The position numbers and the translations under genes were made by a program. A stretch of DNA of 64,000 bases, taken from the NCBI GenBank assembly GCA_947648495.1, contig CANSOA010000009.1, forward strand, positions 5,397 through 69,396, given 5' to 3'. This DNA is from an uncultured Clostridium sp. (lineage in GTDB: Bacteria; Bacillota; Clostridia; TANB77; CAG-508). Below are positions 1 to 10,161 of this stretch, piece by piece. Under the pieces are notes generated by a model. The model did no database searches and was not told the DNA's origin. It was given only the letters and a program-made list of their open reading frames with translations. Position 1 is the stretch's first letter, and each line of letters starts with the position of its first letter.

Positions 1-537
1 GAAGGAGTGACAAGATTAGAGGTAGAAGATGGCACAAGGATTGTTTTACTGGCTTCTGAAGAAAATTTTGGTGGTTGGTATAACGCTAATACTGACACTC
101 TTGTAGCACAGACAGCAGTATATGATAAATATACTGTACACTCGGATGTAGAGTTCGAGGTGCGTTACAGTGATGAACCAATTAAACCAGAACCGAGAGT
201 ATATTTTTTCGGCAATCAAATTGAAGTTAATTCAGATAAATATAGCGTGTACATCGCCAACGATATACCTTCGGAAGTTGAAAAGGTTGAATGGGGGATT
301 ATATTTACTACAAATGATGCGAAAGATATTTCGGAAGAAATGATGACTGTGGAGATGGCTGAAGATTCTGATATTATTAAAAAAGCCGCTGTGGATAATT
401 CTAAGGTTACTATGACCATTGCGTCTAAATTACCAGCAACTTCGATGACCAAGAAATTCCGTGTATATGCAATAATTAAGAACGCAACTGGTAAAACGGA
501 AACTATTTACAGCGAAGTTCTTGAGCAAACATTTTAG
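1..537 (+). CDS. hypothetical protein, 3' portion of a gene that starts upstream of the window
   Basis: The reading frame is open from position 1 in the frame of the 7..537 ORF. No domain recognised. Confidence 0.4.
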   Translation, partial: EGVTRLEVEDGTRIVLLASEENFGGWYNANTDTLVAQTAVYDKYTVHSDVEFEVRYSDEPIKPEPRVYFFGNQIEVNSDKYSVYIANDIPSEVEKVEWGIIFTTNDAKDISEEMMTVEMAEDSDIIKKAAVDNSKVTMTIASKLPATSMTKKFRVYAIIKNATGKTETIYSEVLEQTF

Positions 538-631
538 TTTTATTTTAGTTTTTCATATTAATTACAAAAACGTAGGATTTCCTGCGTTTTTGTTTTTATG
601 TAAAATTTATACAATTATTTGCGAAAAAGCA

Positions 632-660
632 TTGACAAATAGGAGAATATTTGCTATAAT
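632..660 (+). promoter_or_regulatory. sigma-A type promoter for the precursor-peptide operon (TTGACA-17-TATAAT, TG-extended)
   Basis: TTGACA at 632-637, a 17-nt spacer, TATAAT at 655-660 with TG at -15/-14. It lies about 40 nt upstream of the 702 ATG. Confidence 0.6.
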
Positions 661-701
661 ATTATTAAGATATTATAGAATTAGGAAAGTGGAGGTAAGT
701 A

Positions 702-860
702 ATGGATAATATAGATGATTTAAATGTAGTACATAACGATAGTATAATAGAAGAAAATATAGAACAATATGATAGTGTAATGGCAGATATTACTACTTTT
801 TCAGCACGAGAAGCAAGTGATTCTTCTAGTATAGATGGAAATACTGGTATTGATATGTAG
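702..860 (+). CDS. candidate RiPP precursor peptide (52 aa; MDNIDDLNVVHNDSIIEENIEQYDSVMADITTF / SAREASDSSSIDGNTGIDM)
   Basis: RBS GTGGAGGT is 8 nt upstream of the ATG. The peptide has an acidic leader and a Ser/Asp/Gly-rich C-terminus. It is directly followed by a hairpin and then the kinase, RRE and exporter genes. It is absent from the ORF track because it is shorter than 60 aa. Confidence 0.55.
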   Translation: MDNIDDLNVVHNDSIIEENIEQYDSVMADITTFSAREASDSSSIDGNTGIDM

Positions 861-894
861 GATTAACTTTTTAATTTGAAAAATCGGAAAAACT

Positions 895-928
895 CGAGAC
901 AGAGTAAGACTCTGTCTCGTTTTTTTTA
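895..928 (+). terminator. intrinsic terminator/attenuator between precursor and modification genes
   Basis: CGAGACAGAGT-AAG-ACTCTGTCTCG followed by T8. Confidence 0.7.
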
Positions 929-941
929 TGAGGAGAAACAT

Positions 942-1661
942 ATGAAATATAAAATAGCTGATATTGTGGTAGAGTTTGAAGCTAAATATCAAGTTTTAGA
1001 AAATAGAGCTAAAAAGTATAGTTTGGTAGATGATTCTGCTTCTTCTTTTAAAATTTCTGTGAGTGATAAAGCGATTCAAGAAGAAATTGCTTTAAGTCCT
1101 TTACTAGATTTGGAATTCTCAGAATATATGTTGGTTGGTTCAAAATTTTATCGAGAGTTATTGAACTATAATGGCTGTCTTCTACATGCTTCAGCAGTTG
1201 TAGTAGAGGAGGAAGCCTATCTTTTTTCTGCTGATTGTGGAACAGGAAAGTCAACGCATACATCATTGTGGATGAAATATTTGGCAGATAAAACCCCCTA
1301 TATTTTAAATGATGATAAACCTGCTATTCGCCTTATAGATAATAAAATTTATGCTTATGGAACGCCATTTTCAGGAAAACATGACTTAAGTGAAAATAAA
1401 AAAGTTAAATTAAAAGCAATTTGTTTTTTGGAGCAATCGAAGATTAATTCTATTAGGAGACTTGAACCGAAAGAAGCGATTAAACTATTTTTGGAACAGA
1501 GTATTCGAAAATTGAAGGAAGATGAAATGTTGAAATTTTTGGATTTGTTAGAAATTTTGTTAAAAGAAATTCCTATGTATAAATTGTATTGCAATATGAG
1601 TAACGAAGCGGTACAATTGTCGTATACGACTATGAAAGGAGAGGTTACAAATGAAGATTAA
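942..1661 (+). CDS. HPr kinase/phosphorylase C-terminal-domain-like P-loop kinase (RiPP kinase-like)
   Basis: The motif LHASAVVVEEEAYLFSADCGTGKST is a HprK-type Walker A. RBS AGGAG lies 6 nt before the ATG at 942. Confidence 0.6.
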   Translation: MKYKIADIVVEFEAKYQVLENRAKKYSLVDDSASSFKISVSDKAIQEEIALSPLLDLEFSEYMLVGSKFYRELLNYNGCLLHASAVVVEEEAYLFSADCGTGKSTHTSLWMKYLADKTPYILNDDKPAIRLIDNKIYAYGTPFSGKHDLSENKKVKLKAICFLEQSKINSIRRLEPKEAIKLFLEQSIRKLKEDEMLKFLDLLEILLKEIPMYKLYCNMSNEAVQLSYTTMKGEVTNED

Positions 1662-1917
1662 AGAAGGGTTTATTTTAAGAGAAGTTGTAAACACGATTGT
1701 GGTTGTGCCAACTGGAAAGGCAGTAGAAGAGTTTCAAGGGATGATTACTTTAAGTAAGTCCGCAAAATTTGTTTGGGAGCTATTGCAAGAAGATAGAACG
1801 GTGGAAGAAATAGCGAATCAATTGGCAGAAAAATATAAAATTGATTTTCAAAGAGCTAAAAATGATGTAGAAAGTTTTATTAAAAAACTGAAAGATGCTA
1901 AAGTAATTGAGGAATAG
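1651..1917 (+). CDS. PqqD-family protein (RiPP recognition element)
   Basis: An 88-aa protein with the typical PqqD pattern (ILREV..TIVVVP..G.......SAKFVWELL...TVEEIANQLAEKY.ID...AKNDVESFIKKL). Its start overlaps the kinase stop, indicating translational coupling. Confidence 0.65.
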   Translation: MKIKEGFILREVVNTIVVVPTGKAVEEFQGMITLSKSAKFVWELLQEDRTVEEIANQLAEKYKIDFQRAKNDVESFIKKLKDAKVIEE

Positions 1918-1943
1918 AAAACGAAGAAAGGAAAAAAATTATA

Positions 1944-3617
1944 TTGAAAGATTTAAAAACACTAAGATGGATTTTTTGCAAAACAAAATCACAAAGCTTT
2001 CATTTTATTTTGCTAAATATAATTAATATTGTTTATTCGGCACTGAGTGTTTATTTAATTTTGGTGTCTAAAAATGTGATTGATTCTGCGGTGTCTCAAT
2101 CGGTGGATGGACTGAGAAAATATATAATAGAATTAATTGTGATATGTTTTATAGAAATTGGCTTGAAAACGATTTTGGGCTCGATTAATGCTGTTACGTG
2201 TGCTAAATTGGAAATTCATTTTAAACAAGATGTTTTAAATACGATTTTAAAAAAAGATTATGAACAAGTTTCAAAATTTCATAGTGGGGAATTGATGACA
2301 AGGGTTGTCTCAGATGTGAATATTATTATTGATACTTTGGTCGCTTTGCTTCCTAATATTTTGTCTATGATGACAAAGTTAATTTGTGCGTTGTTATTGT
2401 TGTTTCATGTTAGCAAAGAATTGGTTGTGCTTTTTTTGGTGGCGGGTTTGATTTTGTTTGCTGTTGTGAATATCTTTAAGCCATTTTTGAAGAAAATACA
2501 TAAAAGGTTGCAAGAGGCAAGTTCCAATGTTCGTTTACTGTTTAAAGAGATTTTTGATAATTTGATTGTGATTAAAATTTTTAATAGTGAAGAGGTCATT
2601 TCTGATAAATCTATGCAGTTGCAAAGTGTTAGGTATGACCTACAAATGAAGCGTAGAAGTATTTCGATTGCATCAAGTGCGGGATTTAATATTATTTATC
2701 AGATTGGTTATTTTTTGACTTTGATTTGGGGGGCTTATAATTTATATTTGCAAAATATTACGGTTGGTGGTTTGACTTCAATTGTACAACTGATTGCACA
2801 GGTTCAGTCTCCGATTATAGGATTGTCGAGGTCGTTTCAAAGTATGTTTACGATGTTGGCTTCTGGTGAGAGAATTATGGAGCTTGAGAATTTAAAAGAT
2901 GATGTAAAAGTGCAAGAAATGGATAAAAATTGTTTGTATGAGAATTTGAAAAGTATTGTGCTAAGAAGTGTTCGTTTTACTTATAAGAATAAGAGGATTT
3001 TTGAGAAAACTGATTTTGAAGTTAAAAAAGGTGAAATTGTTGCGATTTATGGTGAATCTGGCATTGGAAAAAGCACGCTTTTGAAGTTGATTTTGGGAAT
3101 TATTCAGAAAGATGATGGCGAGATTTTTTTTGAGTTGGAAGATGGAAGCGTGCAAGAAATAGGGAATGATACCAGAAATATGTTCGCTTATGTGCCACAA
3201 GGCAAATTTATTTTGAGTGGAACTATTCGAGAAAATGTTACATTTGTTAATCCAAATATTTCTGAGAAAGCTTTGCAAGAGGCGTTGGAAGTTAGTAATT
3301 GTAAACTGTTTTTGGATGATTTGCCAGATGGCTTGGACACGAAGATTGGAGAAAGAGGATGTGGTTTGTCAGAAGGACAGTTGCAGAGATTGGCAATTGC
3401 AAGAGCTTTGGTGAGCGAAGCTCCGATTTTGATTTTAGACGAGATTACGTCTAGTTTGGATAGTAAGACAGAAGAAGAGGTTTTGCATAAGATTAAGAAT
3501 TTAAAAAATAGGACGTGCATTATTGTGACACATCGAAATAGTATTTCCAAGATTTGCGATCGAGAATTTGTGGTTGAGAATAAGAAGATAAACGAAAAGG
3601 AAAAAAAAGATGAATGA
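1944..3617 (+). CDS. ABC transporter, fused permease/ATP-binding protein (peptide exporter type)
   Basis: An N-terminal 6-TM region, then Walker A GESGIGKST, the ABC signature LSEGQLQRLAIARAL and Walker B ILILDE. It uses a TTG start. Confidence 0.8.
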   Translation: MKDLKTLRWIFCKTKSQSFHFILLNIINIVYSALSVYLILVSKNVIDSAVSQSVDGLRKYIIELIVICFIEIGLKTILGSINAVTCAKLEIHFKQDVLNTILKKDYEQVSKFHSGELMTRVVSDVNIIIDTLVALLPNILSMMTKLICALLLLFHVSKELVVLFLVAGLILFAVVNIFKPFLKKIHKRLQEASSNVRLLFKEIFDNLIVIKIFNSEEVISDKSMQLQSVRYDLQMKRRSISIASSAGFNIIYQIGYFLTLIWGAYNLYLQNITVGGLTSIVQLIAQVQSPIIGLSRSFQSMFTMLASGERIMELENLKDDVKVQEMDKNCLYENLKSIVLRSVRFTYKNKRIFEKTDFEVKKGEIVAIYGESGIGKSTLLKLILGIIQKDDGEIFFELEDGSVQEIGNDTRNMFAYVPQGKFILSGTIRENVTFVNPNISEKALQEALEVSNCKLFLDDLPDGLDTKIGERGCGLSEGQLQRLAIARALVSEAPILILDEITSSLDSKTEEEVLHKIKNLKNRTCIIVTHRNSISKICDREFVVENKKINEKEKKDE

Positions 3618-4752
3618 AGCGAAAGAATTATTGAGAATAATTAAAAATTTTATAGAAGATGCAAACTGTGAGATAAATGAAAATATGGATGAAAAAGCTT
3701 TGTATCATTTGGCAAAAATGCATAAGGTAAGTAATTTTTTGATTTGTTGGGCTGAAAAAAGTTGTCAATCTGAGGAAATAAAGAGTAAAATTCAGCAAGA
3801 TTTTAATCATCAAATTATTAAGGATACGAATGAAAATATTGAATTGGAGCATATATTAAATAACTTTGAGGAGGCGGGAATTGATACGCTTGTTGTCAAA
3901 GGTGTTACGATGAAAGAGGTGTATCCGCAAGATTATATGAGACAAATGTGTGATATGGATCTTATGATTCATCAAAAGGATTTTAAAAAGGCTTCTAAGA
4001 TTATGAAACACTTAGGATTTGAAGAGTTTTACGATCATGAAAAACATTTGGTTTTTAGCAAAAATTCTTTGATTCTTGTTGAGATGCATCGAAAATTAAT
4101 TCCAGGTGGCGATGTTTCGCATGAGTATTTTAATGCGATTTGGCCGTTGTGTATTCCATATAAAAATTATGATAAGGTGTTTCGTATGAATTTGGAGGAT
4201 ACGTATTTGTTTTGCATGATTCATTTGATTCGCCATTTTAAGTATGCTGGGATTGAGATTCGAGATGTTTTGGATGTTTATTTGTTTTGGGAGAAGTATA
4301 AAAATGATTTTTGTTTTGAGAAATTAAATCGAAAATTGGAGGAGTTTGGGGCAAAAAGGTTTGAAGAAAATATCCGAAAAATAGCGTATAAATGGTTTGG
4401 CGATACTCAAGTCAATGATTTTGATGAGGTGGAAGCGTTCATTTTAAAGGGAGCGAGCATTGAAAATAATGTTCATTATGCAGTAGGTGAAAAGAAGGGA
4501 AAAGTAAATTATTTGTTTCGATTGCTGTTTCCGGAATTTAAGGTGATGAAGGAAAAATATCCTGTTTTGAAGAAAATGCCTATTTTATTGCCTGTTACTT
4601 GGGGAGCGCGTTTGTTGAAGGATGTCTTTTCGCAGGAAACAACGGTGAAGGCGAGAATGAAGCAAATTAAATTAATTCAAGAAGTGAAACAGGAAGATGT
4701 GGAAGAAATTCAAGATATTTATGAGAAATTAGGAATTGTGGAAAGGAAATAG
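3610..4752 (+). CDS. NTP_transf_5-type putative nucleotidyltransferase
   Basis: The motif LVVKGVTMKEVYPQDYMRQMCDMDLMI matches the hG[GS]...DhDhh nucleotidyltransferase fold signature of the uncharacterised-NTase family. It overlaps the ABC gene by 8 nt. Confidence 0.5.
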   Translation: MNEAKELLRIIKNFIEDANCEINENMDEKALYHLAKMHKVSNFLICWAEKSCQSEEIKSKIQQDFNHQIIKDTNENIELEHILNNFEEAGIDTLVVKGVTMKEVYPQDYMRQMCDMDLMIHQKDFKKASKIMKHLGFEEFYDHEKHLVFSKNSLILVEMHRKLIPGGDVSHEYFNAIWPLCIPYKNYDKVFRMNLEDTYLFCMIHLIRHFKYAGIEIRDVLDVYLFWEKYKNDFCFEKLNRKLEEFGAKRFEENIRKIAYKWFGDTQVNDFDEVEAFILKGASIENNVHYAVGEKKGKVNYLFRLLFPEFKVMKEKYPVLKKMPILLPVTWGARLLKDVFSQETTVKARMKQIKLIQEVKQEDVEEIQDIYEKLGIVERK

Positions 4753-4756
4753 AAAA

Positions 4757-5479
4757 ATGTTTGTGGAGCATGAAGTTTTTATTGGGCTTAGAGATGTTGC
4801 GCTTGACAACAAGGTGACGAATACGGCATTACTTTCTTATTTGGAGGATGCAGGTGGCGTCCATTCTAATTTGGTAGGGTTTGGTCTGAACGATATTCCG
4901 AATGTGAAAAGAAGTTGGGTACTTTTGGGCTGGAAAATTGAGATTTTTGAAAGACCGAAGTATGGAGATAAAATTAGTATTAAAACTTGGTCGCGTGGGA
5001 TTGAAAAGTTGTATGCATATCGTGATTTTGAGATTTTAGATGAAAATAAAGAAGTAATTGGAATTGCAACTTCGAAGTGGGTTTTGGTAGATATTGAAAA
5101 TGGTAAAATTTCAAGAATTGATCCAAAAGTTTGTGAAGCTTATACTGTGGAAGAAAGAAAAGTATTTGAAGAGGTGGATTTAGGAAAATTAGTGGAACCG
5201 AATTTGTATATAGATTCTACAATGTTTACGGTTAATCGAAGTTTGATTGATGTGAATAATCATTTGCATAATATTTATTTTATGGATATTGCCAATGAAG
5301 TATTGCCAATGGAAATTTATAGGAATGCGGATTTTAAATGGATTCAAATGATGTGCAAGAAGGAAATTAAGTTGGGGGATACGGTGAAGGTGTTTTATCA
5401 AGTGGAAAATGGGGAACATGTTGTGGTGATTAAAAGTGAGGATGAGAAGTGTTTGCATGGAATTATTCGATTGAAATAA
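4757..5479 (+). CDS. acyl-ACP thioesterase (FatA/FatB-like hotdog fold)
   Basis: About 240 aa with an acyl-ACP thioesterase-like sequence (NTALLSYLEDAGGVHSNLVGFGLNDIPNVKRSWVLLGWKIEI...). RBS GGAAAGGAAA precedes the ATG at 4757. Confidence 0.55.
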   Translation: MFVEHEVFIGLRDVALDNKVTNTALLSYLEDAGGVHSNLVGFGLNDIPNVKRSWVLLGWKIEIFERPKYGDKISIKTWSRGIEKLYAYRDFEILDENKEVIGIATSKWVLVDIENGKISRIDPKVCEAYTVEERKVFEEVDLGKLVEPNLYIDSTMFTVNRSLIDVNNHLHNIYFMDIANEVLPMEIYRNADFKWIQMMCKKEIKLGDTVKVFYQVENGEHVVVIKSEDEKCLHGIIRLK

Positions 5480-5632
5480 GACTTGCAAAGCTTGAAGATT
5501 TGTGATACAATAAATATATTATAACATATTAACATAATTTCTTTAGAATGTCGCTATGGAGGTATGCGATTTTAGACAACATTTTTTATTTTTAGCAACT
5601 TGGCAAATGCCAAAAAGAAAGGAGTATTTTTC

Positions 5633-6049
5633 ATGCAACAAGGTTATTGTATTCGGAGTTTGGATGTATCAGCTATTATGTATGACAATGAAGAGGATCG
5701 AAAATTTAAACAAAATGGCGGAAAAATTCCTTTAAAGATAAAAGGAGAAACTTTTTCAGATATTCCGTTTAAATTGCCAATTCGAGGAAAAGCGTATGAT
5801 TTTGCAAGAAGGAATGATGTGTATTATGATCCAATGGTATACGTTGTTTTATATGCTGATGAAGAACATCTGCAGTGCTTGTTTGTCTTTCGCTTTATAG
5901 CCAGTAGTGGCGCGTGTGATATTGCACGGTGTGTCGGGAAAAACTCAGTAAGGAGACACTGGGGAAGAGTCCGACGATACATTCAAAGATATGGGAATGC
6001 AATTCGAGATGGAGTGATTGCGAAAAATTCTCACTTAGAGTTTGATTGA
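5633..6049 (+). CDS. hypothetical protein (only the N-terminal ~90 aa look convincingly coding)
   Basis: RBS AAAGGAG at 5618-5624, ATG at 5633. The distal part is compositionally atypical (GC-richer, two in-frame CGG codons). Confidence 0.3.
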   Translation: MQQGYCIRSLDVSAIMYDNEEDRKFKQNGGKIPLKIKGETFSDIPFKLPIRGKAYDFARRNDVYYDPMVYVVLYADEEHLQCLFVFRFIASSGACDIARCVGKNSVRRHWGRVRRYIQRYGNAIRDGVIAKNSHLEFD

Positions 6050-6057
6050 AATAACCT

Positions 6058-6104
6058 AAAAAAGAGAGCGTTACTTTTGAATAACGCTCTCTTTGCTGTT
6101 TTTT
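6058..6104. terminator. bidirectional intrinsic terminator
   Basis: AGAGAGCGTTA-CTTTTGAA-TAACGCTCTCT with A/T runs on both sides. It sits between convergent genes. Confidence 0.65.
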
Positions 6105-7218
6105 ATTCATTTGCTAGTGGATTGCTCTCAATGGCATTTCGTACTTGTTCATCATCAACATGCGTGTAAATTTGCGTGGTGGCAATGCTTTCATGACCTA
6201 GAACTTCTTGGAGAGCACGAATATCCACTTGTCCATATTTGTACATAAGGGTTGCTGCGGTATGTCTCAATTTGTGGACAGAATATTTATTTGGATCAAT
6301 GCCTGCCATACGAAATTCTTGTTTTACAATATATTGAACGGTTCGATTGCTAATTCGTTTTCGCTGTTCGCTTAAAAATAAAGCGTTACGAGAATCAAAC
6401 TTAATTCCTTCATGGGGACGAATTTCTAAATATTGATGGATAGCTTTTATGCAAGCTTTGTTTAAATAAACGGTACGCTCTTTGTTTCCTTTTCCGATAA
6501 CGGTTAATTTGTTGTTCTCAAAATCTATATCATTTATATTAATACTTGTTAGCTCTGATAAACGCATGCCACAGTTTAAAAATAGGGTTATAATGGCAAA
6601 GTCTCTGATAGAATTGTCATGATTTCCGTGTGTTTTGGGAAGAGGAGTTTTGGTTACTTCGAGTAGTTTTCGGCTTTCCTCTAAACTTAAGTATTTTGGT
6701 AAACGTTTTCCTAATTTGGGACTTTCTAGGTCTGTCGCTGGGTTGTTGGGGATGCGTTTGGTTTTGTTGCATAAATAATTAAAAAAAACGCGAATACTTG
6801 CTGTTTTGCGAGCGAGTGTGGCAGGTTTACTGTGGTAACAGGTTTTTAAGTAGGATAAAAATGCATGAATGTCTTGAAGTGTAATGTTTGAGATGGTTTC
6901 GAGTGATAAATCATCGATTGTGATTTGTTTTATGAATTCTTCAGATTTTGAGTCTGTCATTTTGAATTTATATTTGATAAATTTAAGGAAATGAGCAATA
7001 TCGTAGTTATATTCTTTGATGGTGTTTTCGGATTTGTTGAGTATGGTGGCTGAATAGTCCAAAAAATCATTTAAAAATTCAGGGTTATTTTCTCTTGTAA
7101 TCATGGCGCCTCCTTTTTTTCTATTATAATATGAGAAGAAAATTTTGGCAAGTAGAGAAATAAAAAAAGAATTTAAAAAAAACTCTTGACATATCAGCAT
7201 TTTGTGAGTATAATGCAA
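6103..7218 (-). CDS. tyrosine site-specific recombinase (XerC/XerD/phage-integrase family)
   Basis: C-terminal HKLRHTAAT...LGHESIATTQIYTHV gives the catalytic R..H..R..Y tetrad pattern. The N-terminal region is SAM-like. Confidence 0.8.
   Translation of the reverse strand: MHYTHKMLICQEFFLNSFFISLLAKIFFSYYNRKKGGAMITRENNPEFLNDFLDYSATILNKSENTIKEYNYDIAHFLKFIKYKFKMTDSKSEEFIKQITIDDLSLETISNITLQDIHAFLSYLKTCYHSKPATLARKTASIRVFFNYLCNKTKRIPNNPATDLESPKLGKRLPKYLSLEESRKLLEVTKTPLPKTHGNHDNSIRDFAIITLFLNCGMRLSELTSININDIDFENNKLTVIGKGNKERTVYLNKACIKAIHQYLEIRPHEGIKFDSRNALFLSEQRKRISNRTVQYIVKQEFRMAGIDPNKYSVHKLRHTAATLMYKYGQVDIRALQEVLGHESIATTQIYTHVDDEQVRNAIESNPLANE
7186..7214 (+). promoter_or_regulatory. sigma-A type promoter upstream of sigH (TTGACA-17-TATAAT)
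   Basis: TTGACA at 7186-7191, TATAAT at 7209-7214. Confidence 0.55.
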
Positions 7219-7253: not shown

Positions 7254-7895
7254 ATGTTAGATGTAAAGAAGTATCATTTTGAAAATGAATATGCTGATGT
7301 ATCCGATGAAAAATTAGTGGAATTGGTAAAAGCAGGTGATAAAACTGCTCTAGATTATTTACTCAACAAATACAAAGATGTTGTTTCGATGAAAACGAAT
7401 CGTTTTTTTATCATTGGCGCTGAAAAAGATGATATGATTCAAGAGGGATTTTGGGGATTGTATAAAGCGATTCAGTGTTTTGATCCAGAGAAGCAAAATT
7501 CTTTTAAAACATTTGCAAATTTATGTATTGAAAGACAGTTAATTACTGTGATAAAAACATCGAACAGACAGAAGAATCTTCCTTTAAATTCGTCATTTTC
7601 TTTAAATACTTCAGCATATGACGAAAATGATGATGTGTCGATTTTAGATATATTAGAGGCAAAGACAGTAGAAGACCCATTAGAAACAATTATAAAAAGA
7701 GAGTATTATGAAAGTGTTGAAGATAAAATCGATAAGAATTTAAGCAAATTTGAAAAACAAGTTTTAAATCAGTACATACAAGGACAAACTTATGTTGATA
7801 TTGCCAATTGTTTAGAGGCACCTGTTAAGTCTGTGGATAATGCAATTCAAAGAATCCGAAAAAAAGCCATAAAATGTTTAAATGAAGGAGAGTAA
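7254..7895 (+). CDS. sigH: RNA polymerase sporulation sigma factor SigH
   Basis: 213 aa with sigma-70 regions 2 and 4. The N-terminus (LVELVKAGDKTALDYLLNKYKDVV ... IQEGFWGLYKAIQCFD) is typical of Spo0H. Confidence 0.8.
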   Translation: MLDVKKYHFENEYADVSDEKLVELVKAGDKTALDYLLNKYKDVVSMKTNRFFIIGAEKDDMIQEGFWGLYKAIQCFDPEKQNSFKTFANLCIERQLITVIKTSNRQKNLPLNSSFSLNTSAYDENDDVSILDILEAKTVEDPLETIIKREYYESVEDKIDKNLSKFEKQVLNQYIQGQTYVDIANCLEAPVKSVDNAIQRIRKKAIKCLNEGE

Positions 7896-7913: not shown

Positions 7914-7989
7914 GCTTCTATAGCTCAGTAGGTAGAGCGCAGCCATGGTAAGGCTGAGGTCGCCAGTTCGATCCTGGCTGGAAGCTCCA
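7914..7989 (+). tRNA. tRNA-Thr (anticodon GGT)
   Basis: A 76-nt cloverleaf with a GCTTCTA/TGGAAGC acceptor stem, D-arm TAGCTCAGTAGGTAGAGC, anticodon stem CAGCC/GGCTG with loop ATGGTAA, T-arm GGTCGCCAGTTCGATCCTGGC, and an encoded CCA. Confidence 0.8.
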
Positions 7990-8156: not shown

Positions 8157-8207
8157 AAATAATAAGAAGCATGTTGCTTTATTATAATTTTGCAGGAGGA
8201 TGATAAT

Positions 8208-8855
8208 ATGATGAAGGTGTTTGAGGAAAAAGACGTAAAGAAAATGCAACTCCAACTTTCTGATGGACGGCTGATGCCTTTGGAAGACTTACTTGAGGAT
8301 TACGAAAGACTTCTGAAGGAAAAAACTCCCCAAAATAAGCTGGAGGTCGGCAAATGGTTTCTCATTAACAGAGATGTTATTGAGAAAAACCAAGAGAAAA
8401 TCCGTCGCGTGTGCGGTGAAGAAAGAGATTCTAAAGGAAGACTATATCGGGAGAGATTTGGAGAATCGAATGAAATCGCTAATGCGGAGCCTGAGAGATA
8501 TCCTCGCCGAATTTGGACTTTTGTCTTCAAGAAGAACTGGAAGTATAAGAAAGAACAGAAAATGCGAAATATGTGTAAAAAGAAAGGAGACGGAATGTGT
8601 GATGAAGTAATCTGTGATTTAGAGTTGCAAATGAGAATTTGTAATGGGGAATCTGCAGAGGATTTATTCAAAAAAGCCGATAAACTTCCACGTGTAAGAG
8701 TTATACAACTTAGAGACGGTGGAACTGGCTATTTTGGTGGCGGTGCTGATTACAATTACAATGCTCCGCCCGCAGACCTTTGCGGGTACGGTTTCGATCC
8801 TGATTACGAGCACTACGGAGGCACGCCATATGCGTTCCGTCGAGAGCTTTCGTAG
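8208..8855 (+). CDS. hypothetical protein (GC-richer than its surroundings)
   Basis: RBS GCAGGAGGA 7 nt before the ATG at 8208. No domain recognised. It contains two in-frame CGG codons, and an alternative-frame ORF overlaps it at 8374-8610. Confidence 0.45.
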   Translation: MMKVFEEKDVKKMQLQLSDGRLMPLEDLLEDYERLLKEKTPQNKLEVGKWFLINRDVIEKNQEKIRRVCGEERDSKGRLYRERFGESNEIANAEPERYPRRIWTFVFKKNWKYKKEQKMRNMCKKKGDGMCDEVICDLELQMRICNGESAEDLFKKADKLPRVRVIQLRDGGTGYFGGGADYNYNAPPADLCGYGFDPDYEHYGGTPYAFRRELS

Positions 8856-8998
8856 CACTGAACACTGTTTTCATTATTTAAATGGAGACAAAACTAAATT
8901 TAAGGGGAGTAATTTCCCCTTAAGTTATTTAAAAAGAAAGCTATCAAATCAAGTAGATAAGTTACAACTTTCTCATATACTATAAAGAGGTGAGAAAG

Positions 8999-9520
8999 TT
9001 GTGTTGCAATAAAAAATGGAATGGATATTATTTTGCTATTAGTATTGGTTTGATTTTTATATTGTTAATTTTGAATTTTAGTTTAACAATTGTTGCACCG
9101 AATAATTATCCTACGCATATCAATAGTTTTAATTATGCACCAGAAAGAGTAGAAAATGGAGGATATATTACGTTTGATACCAATAGAATTGTAGAAAAAA
9201 ATGATATAACACATCAAGAAGGAAGTTCAGATTTTGTTATTAATCAAGATGGAAATTATTATATTGGGTTTAATACAACGATTTATGAGCCACCATCAAC
9301 AGGGAAAGAAACAACTTTGTCTGTTTGTTTAGAGCATAATAATGCAACTGTATATGGTACAACAGTTGGTGAAACAGTTGCAAATGCTTATCAAACAGTT
9401 AATTTGAGTTTTGAAGTAATAGTTAAAGCGAAGCGAGGAGATATTTTAAGGGTAAAAAATAATTCTGGAACAGTGGTGGAATTATTACAACCTAATATAA
9501 ATATGATAAGAGCAAAATAA
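8999..9520 (+). CDS. hypothetical membrane-anchored/secreted protein
   Basis: An N-terminal hydrophobic segment followed by a polar domain. The start is uncertain (TTG 8999 or GTG 8990). Confidence 0.45.
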   Translation: MCCNKKWNGYYFAISIGLIFILLILNFSLTIVAPNNYPTHINSFNYAPERVENGGYITFDTNRIVEKNDITHQEGSSDFVINQDGNYYIGFNTTIYEPPSTGKETTLSVCLEHNNATVYGTTVGETVANAYQTVNLSFEVIVKAKRGDILRVKNNSGTVVELLQPNINMIRAK

Positions 9521-9597: not shown

Positions 9598-10161
9598 ATG
9601 AAGGAAGACGATATGAAAAAGAAAAGTATTTTTTGGATGGTGGGCATTTTGATTTTAATTGTTATTGTGGGCATTATAACAAATTATGCAGACAGTGCAA
9701 ATCTGACAACTGGACATGAGCCATCTTACTGTATCAAGCGAATCAGTAAAAATGGAGATAAAGTAACTTATTGGGGATTAGGCTACAAAGTCATTCGATA
9801 TGTCAGTGTATCTCCTCATGAGCCATACGAACAAAATATTGGAGTAAAAATGGGCAGTTGGTTTATGAAATATGAATTGCCTAACCCCAAAATAGTCCAG
9901 ATACAATATAATGGAACGACTATGCAAATAACAAATCATAAAGATATTTCAGTCTTAGAAAATATTTTAGTAAATTCAAAATACGATTCGGGAATATGTG
10001 ATGGAATTGCTACATATACAATAACAATTGATAATCAAACATATTCTATAAAACAAAGTTGCAAAGAAATTCAAAAAGACGATAAACAAGCCCCTGTGAC
10101 AGAAGAAGATTTAAACACAATTTTGAAAATAATAGAGAGAAATCAATCAGATGAGTTATAA
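9598..10161 (+). CDS. hypothetical secreted protein with N-terminal signal/anchor
   Basis: The MKKKSIFWMVGILILIVIVGIIT signal-anchor. The start is ATG 9598 or 9612. Confidence 0.5.
   Translation: MKEDDMKKKSIFWMVGILILIVIVGIITNYADSANLTTGHEPSYCIKRISKNGDKVTYWGLGYKVIRYVSVSPHEPYEQNIGVKMGSWFMKYELPNPKIVQIQYNGTTMQITNHKDISVLENILVNSKYDSGICDGIATYTITIDNQTYSIKQSCKEIQKDDKQAPVTEEDLNTILKIIERNQSDEL

Follow-up and report, generated by a model that had tools for sequence, protein, structure and literature searches.

The 64,000-nucleotide stretch of an uncultured Clostridium sp. contig analysed here (CANSOA010000009.1, positions 5,397 to 69,396; hereafter the window) carries at positions 632-4752 a five-gene operon that we read, with reasonable but not full confidence, as encoding a ribosomally made, post-translationally modified peptide (RiPP) of the linear polyphosphorylated peptide (LPP) type, whose product would be a small secreted, probably phosphorylated peptide. 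LPPs were defined by Popov et al. (Nat Commun 2026; PMC13381572) from lppA-K-B-S-D-N gene clusters, with the reference cluster in Paenibacillus alginolyticus DSM5050; the genes encode a precursor peptide (A), an HprK-like kinase (K), a RiPP recognition element (RRE; B), an SpI-like peptidase (S, TIGR02228), an MsbA-like pump (D) and an NTP_transf_5 enzyme (N). The window likewise has a precursor, kinase, RRE, exporter and NTP_transf_5 enzyme in the same order, without a macrolactam cyclase and beside cell-surface genes. Two features that define LPP clusters, the SpI-like peptidase and the YxxP leader motif, are absent, and we propose that the operon descends from, and works like, an LPP cluster minus these two. 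This reading builds on observed features: which genes are present, their folds and synteny, the structure of the clade and the purifying selection on the genes.

The operon is real, compact and well formed (Table 1). Its promoter is one of only two 12/12 consensus matches in the first 7.5 kb of the window, and a GGAGG ribosome-binding site lies 7 nt upstream of the precursor peptide gene, which is also annotated as a gene in public assemblies. The hairpin between the precursor and enzyme genes folds at -21.7 kcal/mol (z = -3.3 against shuffled sequences). Behind it the kinase and RRE genes overlap by 11 nt and the exporter and nucleotidyltransferase genes by 8 nt, and a gap of 4 nt, with no terminator in it, separates the nucleotidyltransferase gene from that of an acyl-ACP thioesterase. 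A search of the operon against Rfam returned no known RNA element. The layout given in an earlier note on this DNA, made from the letters alone, is thereby borne out: a consensus promoter, a 52-aa peptide gene, a hairpin terminator following it and five packed or overlapping genes 3' of the hairpin. Between the window and its closest relative (locus L091, kinase 85% identical), the ratio of non-synonymous to synonymous substitution rates (dN/dS) is 0.10-0.26 for all five operon genes, which indicates that the module is maintained and not decaying. The kinase has the value of 0.10, and the peptide gene, which differs by 5 synonymous and 7 non-synonymous codon changes and an in-frame 4-codon indel, a value of about 0.26.

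The four proteins encoded downstream of the peptide gene correspond to the non-peptidase components of an LPP cluster. The kinase stands beside the RRE gene, as LppK does, and its homology to LppK is drawn through relatives 41-50% identical to it that lie in K-B-S-D-N loci. It carries a precomputed assignment to PF27840 (ScmC) in public assemblies, had no match in the copy of Pfam used, and matched the NCBIfam ScmC model TIGR04249 weakly (1.8e-6, under the cut-off). Its motifs CGTGKSTHT (the P-loop), NDDKP and GTPFSGK are invariant. Because the best PDB matches of its AlphaFold model (mean predicted local distance difference test score, pLDDT, 89) are HprK/P, followed by PEPCK (Foldseek E 9e-6), the label "HprK-like" is borne out at the level of the predicted fold; a PDB sequence search with the kinase profile found nothing. 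The RRE is a discrete PqqD-type protein, as in LPP clusters, and is 45% identical (E 1e-26) to an RRE listed beside a cluster-4 SpI peptidase in Supplementary Data 1 of Popov et al. (PMC13381572); its matches to the NCBIfam models of lasso B1 proteins are weak. The exporter is MsbA-like, as LppD is. Its NCBIfam matches, of MsbA and type-I-secretion-like kinds, start at the transmembrane domain, and the MsbA model TIGR02203 scores 4e-73, under its cut-off. The NTP_transf_5 enzyme, the counterpart of LppN, retains G98 and the D115xD117 motif in all 28 homologues compared. The earlier note's calls of an HprK-type kinase with a CGTGKST P-loop, an 88-aa PqqD-like leader-binding domain and a 380-aa NTP_transf_5 protein with a G..DxD motif have all stood up to these comparisons.

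Table 1. The operon in the window, with the features that adjoin it (window coordinates)
Feature	Positions	Strand	Size	Evidence or remarks
Large InlB B-repeat (Flg_new_2) surface-protein gene, 3' end	1-537	+		Neighbour and boundary, outside the cluster
Terminator-like hairpin	564-593	+		13-pair stem, then T-run; closes the upstream gene, 5' boundary of the operon
Promoter	632-660	+		Sigma-70 consensus TTGACA-17-TATAAT, score 12/12, TG extension (extended -10)
Precursor peptide gene, LppA-like	702-860	+	52 aa	MDNIDDLNVVHNDSIIEENIEQYDSVMADITTFSAREASDSSSIDGNTGIDM; net charge -12, no Cys, no Pro
Intrinsic terminator/attenuator	895-927	+		Between precursor and enzyme genes; 11-bp stem (895-919) with 6 GC pairs, T8
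HprK-fold P-loop kinase, LppK-like, ScmC family	942-1661	+	239 aa	PF27840, P-loop, fold match
Discrete RRE, PqqD-like/LppB-like	1651-1917	+	88 aa	PF05402, 3e-18
MsbA-type ABC (ATP-binding cassette) exporter, LppD-like	1944-3617	+	557 aa	ABC_membrane and ABC_tran; no peptidase domain
NTP_transf_5 nucleotidyltransferase-fold enzyme, LppN/PsmN-like	3610-4752	+	380 aa	PF14907, 8e-45, full profile
Acyl-ACP thioesterase	4757-5479	+	240 aa	Acyl-ACP_TE N- and C-terminal domains, 3e-23

The kinase family is large: it gave 3891 database matches, and species-representative genomes contain at least 596 candidate stretches, almost all of which come from uncultured gut and rumen Clostridia (e.g. Acutalibacteraceae, Oscillospiraceae, Ruminococcaceae and Eubacteriales). 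When the kinases are grouped at 90% identity, at least 120 separate clusters share 55-100% identity with the window kinase. Clustering of the genes around the kinase in 80 fetched loci gave, as recurrent families, the kinase itself (78), PqqD (43), a protein of about 155 aa (36), the ABC exporter (30) and NTP_transf_5 (14); the others were envelope genes, namely Wzz, CpsB, LytR_cpsA_psr, VanZ, SLH and InlB-repeat proteins, pilins and the T2SSE ATPase. The protein of about 155 aa is Peptidase_S24/S26-like, with archaeal-type signal peptidase I as its best NCBIfam model. It is homologous to LppS (E 1.4e-26 with a hidden Markov model, HMM; 35 of the 36 members by BLASTP) and closest to cluster 9 of the network of Popov et al. 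(PMC13381572). Distant Clostridial relatives of the window kinase thus carry an LppS homologue together with YxxP-type leaders: at 32-50% kinase identity the peptidase is common, and in 11 peptidase-containing Clostridial loci the precursor has a leader of the form MKKxYxxPElEIxEFxxEDIITxS followed by a short acidic core. This leader resembles the published LPP motif YxxPxVLxHQxIxFETxxS, in which [Y/W]xxP is the knob bound by the RRE (PMC13381572). The 11 precursors are plainly of LPP kind.

At kinase identities of 56% or more, all 13 loci have the arrangement K-B-D-N, with or without the thioesterase gene, and none has the peptidase. These 13 loci are monophyletic in a neighbour-joining tree of the kinase (computed without bootstrap), with loci that have the peptidase among their nearest neighbours. 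Open reading frames (ORFs) in the related loci were called by a crude longest-ORF method; in most of the 13, all five genes are whole and keep a conserved length. A survey of the promoter, small ORF and hairpin took in 11 of the clade loci. In every one of them a perfect TTGACA-N17-TATAAT promoter lies 34-46 nt 5' of the peptide ORF and a small acidic ORF of 37-60 aa occupies the same position; a hairpin with a T-run separates this ORF from the kinase gene in 10. The encoded peptides are hypervariable in sequence, mostly strongly acidic and free of Cys, with much Ser, Thr and Gly towards the C-terminus. Several retain E-[DE]-P-x-[VM]-E, and the peptide of L104 retains YRSPEL. The pairing of such variable cores with a strong promoter that does not vary makes the clade peptides candidates for diversifying selection, as for signals or weapons. 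A metagenome scan with a single kinase sequence yielded six distant loci (32-35% identity) and added no members to the clade.

The peptidase that defines the LPP family was not found in the window or at the clade loci. A profile of 36 LppS homologues gave a best E-value of 0.25 against the 64-kb window, and none of the 13 clade loci has an SpI-like peptidase within about 7 kb. The leader of the window peptide also departs from the family: the peptide has no Pro, and in a set of 1700 ORFs an HMM of the 11 Clostridial YxxP leaders failed to pick it out, so that the LPP leader motif cannot be recognised in it. Alignment with MAFFT and by eye places Y23, I30, F33 and S42 opposite leader positions without gaps, a correspondence that is suggestive only. 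Judged from these sequences, the canonical YxxP motif has decayed in the branch to which the window belongs. Further differences from described LPPs lie in the cores, which are short, acidic and Ser/Thr/Gly-rich in the clade whereas the LppA core is basic, 45 aa long and Gly/Asn/Pro-rich; in the host, a gut Clostridia lineage as opposed to Bacilli; and in the thioesterase gene appended to the operon.

The chemistry of the operon can be proposed by homology to LppK, LppB, LppD and LppN and to PsmK and PsmN, from which every step below is taken. A very strong promoter would drive synthesis of the small acidic precursor peptide, and a leaky terminator would let a fraction of the transcripts reach the enzyme genes. 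The PqqD-type RRE would bind the N-terminal part of the peptide and hand it to the HprK-fold kinase, which would phosphorylate serine in the Ser-rich C-terminal part, probably repeatedly, with S34, S39 and S41-S43 as candidates; LppK places up to four phosphates on Ser+3 of LppA, its proven substrate (PMC13381572). The NTP_transf_5 enzyme may then add a sugar or another nucleotide-activated group to the phosphate, as PsmN does in the lasso peptide pseudomycoidin, where it puts one or two hexoses on phosphoserine, and the MsbA-like ABC pump would export the product. In the LPP system LppS and LppB cut after Thr-1 in an RRE-dependent cleavage (PMC13381572). With no LppS at this locus, the peptide would be exported unprocessed, with its leader retained, or be trimmed by an unlinked protease.

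The predicted structure of the NTP_transf_5 enzyme (pLDDT 87.5) gives weak matches to LnuA, ANT(2'')-Ia, MenT, CCA-adding enzymes and FKRP (best E 6e-3), too weak for nucleotidyl, phospho-alcohol and sugar transfer to be told apart, and a PDB sequence search with the enzyme found nothing. At one relative, a kinase-PqqD-NTP_transf_5 locus with no exporter, the gene directly 3' of the nucleotidyltransferase gene (L042:3184-3909) encodes a TarI-like D-ribitol-5-phosphate cytidylyltransferase (NF001183, 5e-75). This neighbour hints that CDP-activated polyols, and not sugars, may be what the NTP_transf_5 family uses. Together, the resemblance to small-molecule O-nucleotidylyltransferases and, weakly, to FKRP, and the CDP-ribitol synthase gene at L042 make transfer of a nucleotide-activated group plausible.

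Several results weigh against assigning the operon to the LPP family. The RRE is just 26% identical to LppB (E 3e-5) and reaches only E 0.34 against PDB 9x8z. The peptide carries no Pro and escaped the leader profile, and its recognition by the RRE at this locus is accordingly putative. The missing leader peptidase may be encoded elsewhere in the genome. LppN was inactive in a heterologous host (PMC13381572), which makes the nucleotidyltransferase step the least certain of those proposed. Finally, 32 of the 96 tabulated kinase homologues are solitary, having neither an RRE nor a peptidase, exporter or nucleotidyltransferase gene nearby; the kinase family is therefore not exclusively linked to RiPPs.

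Among other explanations is a split lasso peptide cluster, whose cyclase and B2 protease would be encoded elsewhere and whose kinase and nucleotidyltransferase would be tailoring enzymes, as for paeninodin and pseudomycoidin. Firmicute lasso clusters typically combine an HprK-like kinase acting on a precursor serine (PadeK, ThcoK, PsmK) with an NTP_transf_5 enzyme decorating the phosphate (PsmN), a B1-type RRE and a D-type exporter; the window RRE matches lasso B1 models and TbiB1, weakly; and LPP and lasso clusters often co-occur in Bacilli (PMC13381572). A Pfam scan covered each plausible ORF of 110 aa or more in the window, apart from six short ones that run antisense within longer genes. 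It found, however, no Asn_synthase domain, as in the lasso cyclase, and no transglutaminase-like domain (B2, Transglut_core-type), in agreement with a linear product and with the earlier note, which had reported neither enzyme within the 64 kb. The neighbour families that recur in the 80 fetched loci likewise include no cyclase or B2 protein, and neither enzyme lies within about 7 kb at those clade loci that have Pfam calls for their genes. The gene just upstream of position 1, where a cyclase/B2 pair would by the terms of the earlier note have refuted its reading, is that of the InlB B-repeat surface protein, as same-species contigs show. Wider relatives have an SpI-type peptidase instead, the [Y/W]xxPx[L/V/I/F/A] leader that accompanies lasso B1 proteins is absent from the window peptide although an RRE is present, and the paeninodin and pseudomycoidin kinases target a C-terminal Ser, whereas the window peptide ends in Met. 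With neither cyclase nor B2 there would be no lasso fold, and we regard a split lasso cluster as highly improbable. The earlier note had offered a phosphorylated and/or nucleotidylated linear peptide or a lasso peptide with distant cyclase and B2 genes; the phosphorylated linear peptide is the better supported half of that proposal and the lasso peptide has become unlikely. A non-RiPP function is also improbable, if somewhat less so. Kinase, RRE, nucleotidyltransferase and pump would then act on an envelope component or on the neighbouring surface protein, and the small ORF would do no more than encode a leader peptide that acts with the attenuator in regulation. The envelope genes that surround the family (Wzz, CpsB, LytR_cpsA_psr, SLH, InlB-repeat proteins, pilins and T2SSE), the large surface-protein gene upstream throughout the clade, the many kinase homologues without an RRE and the hypervariability of the small ORF fit this view. 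Discrete RREs are nevertheless characteristic of systems that act on peptides, an LPP/lasso-type YxxP leader is found in the homologous small ORFs of the peptidase-containing relatives, and LppA is a proven kinase substrate (PMC13381572); in addition, the surface-protein gene has its own terminator and adjoins the thioesterase gene also where the cluster is absent. The operon could, lastly, be the decaying and non-functional remnant of an LPP cluster. Peptidase and YxxP motif have been lost, and the nucleotidyltransferase gene of L094 (10704-11696) and the ABC and nucleotidyltransferase genes of L105 (7168-8848 and 8835-9987) are truncated or split into two ORFs, through either pseudogenization in some lineages or assembly error. 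Decay sits poorly with genes that are intact in most of the 13 loci and under the dN/dS values given above, with a promoter kept in all 11 surveyed clade loci and an attenuator kept in 10 of them, and with at least 120 kinase clusters at 55-100% identity, and we consider it very unlikely.

The thioesterase raises a different question, namely whether it takes part in biosynthesis by adding or removing an acyl group, which would make the product an acylated (lipo-)phosphopeptide and might somehow replace the peptidase step. The earlier note was right in calling the last gene an acyl-ACP thioesterase; its start has been corrected from TTG at 4736 to the ATG at 4757. The protein matches PDB 2ESS (1.5e-18) and retains the catalytic DxNxH...E motif, the gene follows the nucleotidyltransferase gene without a terminator, and this adjacency recurs in 10 of the 13 clade loci (including L091, whose contig ends 35 codons into the gene) despite a downstream flank that differs between an XerC-like gene and Spo0A. 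L103 and L104, however, have an intact A-K-B-D-N set without the thioesterase, and L011 ends before that position. Orthologues of 51-55% identity occur without K-B-D-N genes, upstream of DinB and XerC-like recombinase genes and with a 5' intergenic region of their own; in L106, which has no RiPP genes, the thioesterase gene lies downstream of a giant Flg_new/SLH surface-protein gene. An acyltransferase is lacking, and the thioesterase does not appear in the text-format supplementary files of the LPP paper (PMC13381572). Its absence from L103 and L104, and the orthologues in a similar neighbourhood without the cluster, make the thioesterase a likely bystander: it is probably an ancestral neighbour co-transcribed by read-through and not a biosynthetic gene. 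The simplest history suggested by these comparisons is an insertion of A-K-B-D-N between the surface-protein gene and the thioesterase gene. Functional recruitment of the thioesterase is possible but unsupported, and a biosynthetic role is in our view unlikely. A bolder proposal, which we hold to be a long shot, is that the clade makes a full-length, uncleaved acidic phosphopeptide recognised by the RRE without the YxxP knob, with the thioesterase perhaps recruited and an acyl or other non-sugar group on the phosphate or the peptide; if so, a secreted or surface-associated lipo-phosphopeptide would be widespread in gut Clostridia.

We therefore return to the LPP-type operon as the preferred reading, and its interest lies in where it has been found. 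The definition of LPPs dates only from 2026; it was based on the SpI-like peptidase, with a focus on Bacilli, and Clostridial pairs of SpI and RRE genes appear there only as the uncharacterized clusters 4 and 9 (PMC13381572). The same core of kinase, RRE, exporter and nucleotidyltransferase is also present in a large peptidase-less branch (no fewer than 13 verified loci, and kinase sequences that fall into about 120 clusters) in uncultured gut and rumen Clostridia, which, lacking the peptidase, is invisible to peptidase-guided searches. The earlier note had called the arrangement undescribed. This does not hold for the core, which was published as LPP in May 2026 (PMC13381572); it does hold for the loss of the peptidase and of YxxP. 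As a natural experiment, the branch bears on whether the pathway can do without leader removal and the YxxP knob and on how RRE specificity drifts, and the compact five-gene unit of 4.1 kb is well suited to determining the role of the NTP_transf_5 enzyme.

Beyond the operon, the window kinase was compared with SynChlorMet, with which it shares membership of the ScmC family and pairing with a PqqD-like protein. It differs in scoring 27.5 bits against the ScmC cut-off of 125, in the ScmD score of 19.5 against 100, and in the absence of the other cassette-defining genes; a literature search on ScmC and SynChlorMet matched only unrelated acronyms. Lone kinases occur beside a DinB-type polymerase gene in L032, L040, L047, L057, L061, L062 and L079, and beside a DUF4430 protein in L038, L065, L069, L074 and L088; to judge by their gene neighbourhoods, these stand-alone ScmC-like kinases have another role. 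Near the thioesterase in L107 lies a 235-aa P-loop protein, which on inspection proved not to be an orphan homologue of the kinase. LPP clusters often lie inside capsule or cell-envelope loci (PMC13381572). Kinase/PqqD loci, some with the peptidase, are set amid envelope and secretion genes in L041, L068, L070, L075 and L078 and in L049, L051, L060, L073 and L084, where these genes encode type IV pilin-like (N_methyl) proteins, the T2SSE ATPase, a LysM/secretin-N protein, LytR_cpsA_psr, Wzz and CpsB. Such envelope-embedded loci extend the published association of LPPs with capsules to Clostridia.

On the 5' side, a contig of the same species (L002) extends the surface protein to at least 568 aa with Flg_new_2/Flg_new domains. 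A surface-protein gene of the same type lies upstream in L092, L094/L095, L102, L105 and L012, and further upstream related genomes carry the genes for L28, SmpB, HIT and RecG. On the 3' side, the ORF at 5600-6049 (+), of 138-163 aa with an ambiguous start, runs up to a bidirectional terminator (6061-6094); we weighed it as a possible sixth enzyme gene and rejected it, because it is kept only in same-species contigs and has no family match. An XerC-like recombinase gene (6103-7218, -) abuts the thioesterase region. In L092, L094 and L102, a block of Spo0A (on the opposite strand), PNP_UDP_1 phosphorylase, response regulator and histidine kinase genes directly follows the thioesterase gene. The same block lies in the window at 52636-56601, about 47 kb away and in the other orientation. 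This difference points to a large inversion or rearrangement, one breakpoint of which would lie immediately downstream of the operon. Perfect and near-perfect divergent promoters (7186-7214, +, and 7151-7123, -) lie between the recombinase gene and a sigma-factor gene (7254-7895), just 3' of which is a tRNA gene (7914-7986, +; Rfam, 65 bits). A small protein encoded at 8990-9520 (+) has a weak, exosporium-like match to the BclA C-terminal model (2.6e-6, under the cut-off); the ORFs on either side of it, 8190-8855 (+) and 9598-10161 (+), match no family. The rest of the window consists of Clostridia housekeeping and sporulation genes: FtsA/FtsZ, SpoIIGA, sigma factors, purine genes, GroEL, CTP synthase, the SpoIIIA operon and Spo0A.

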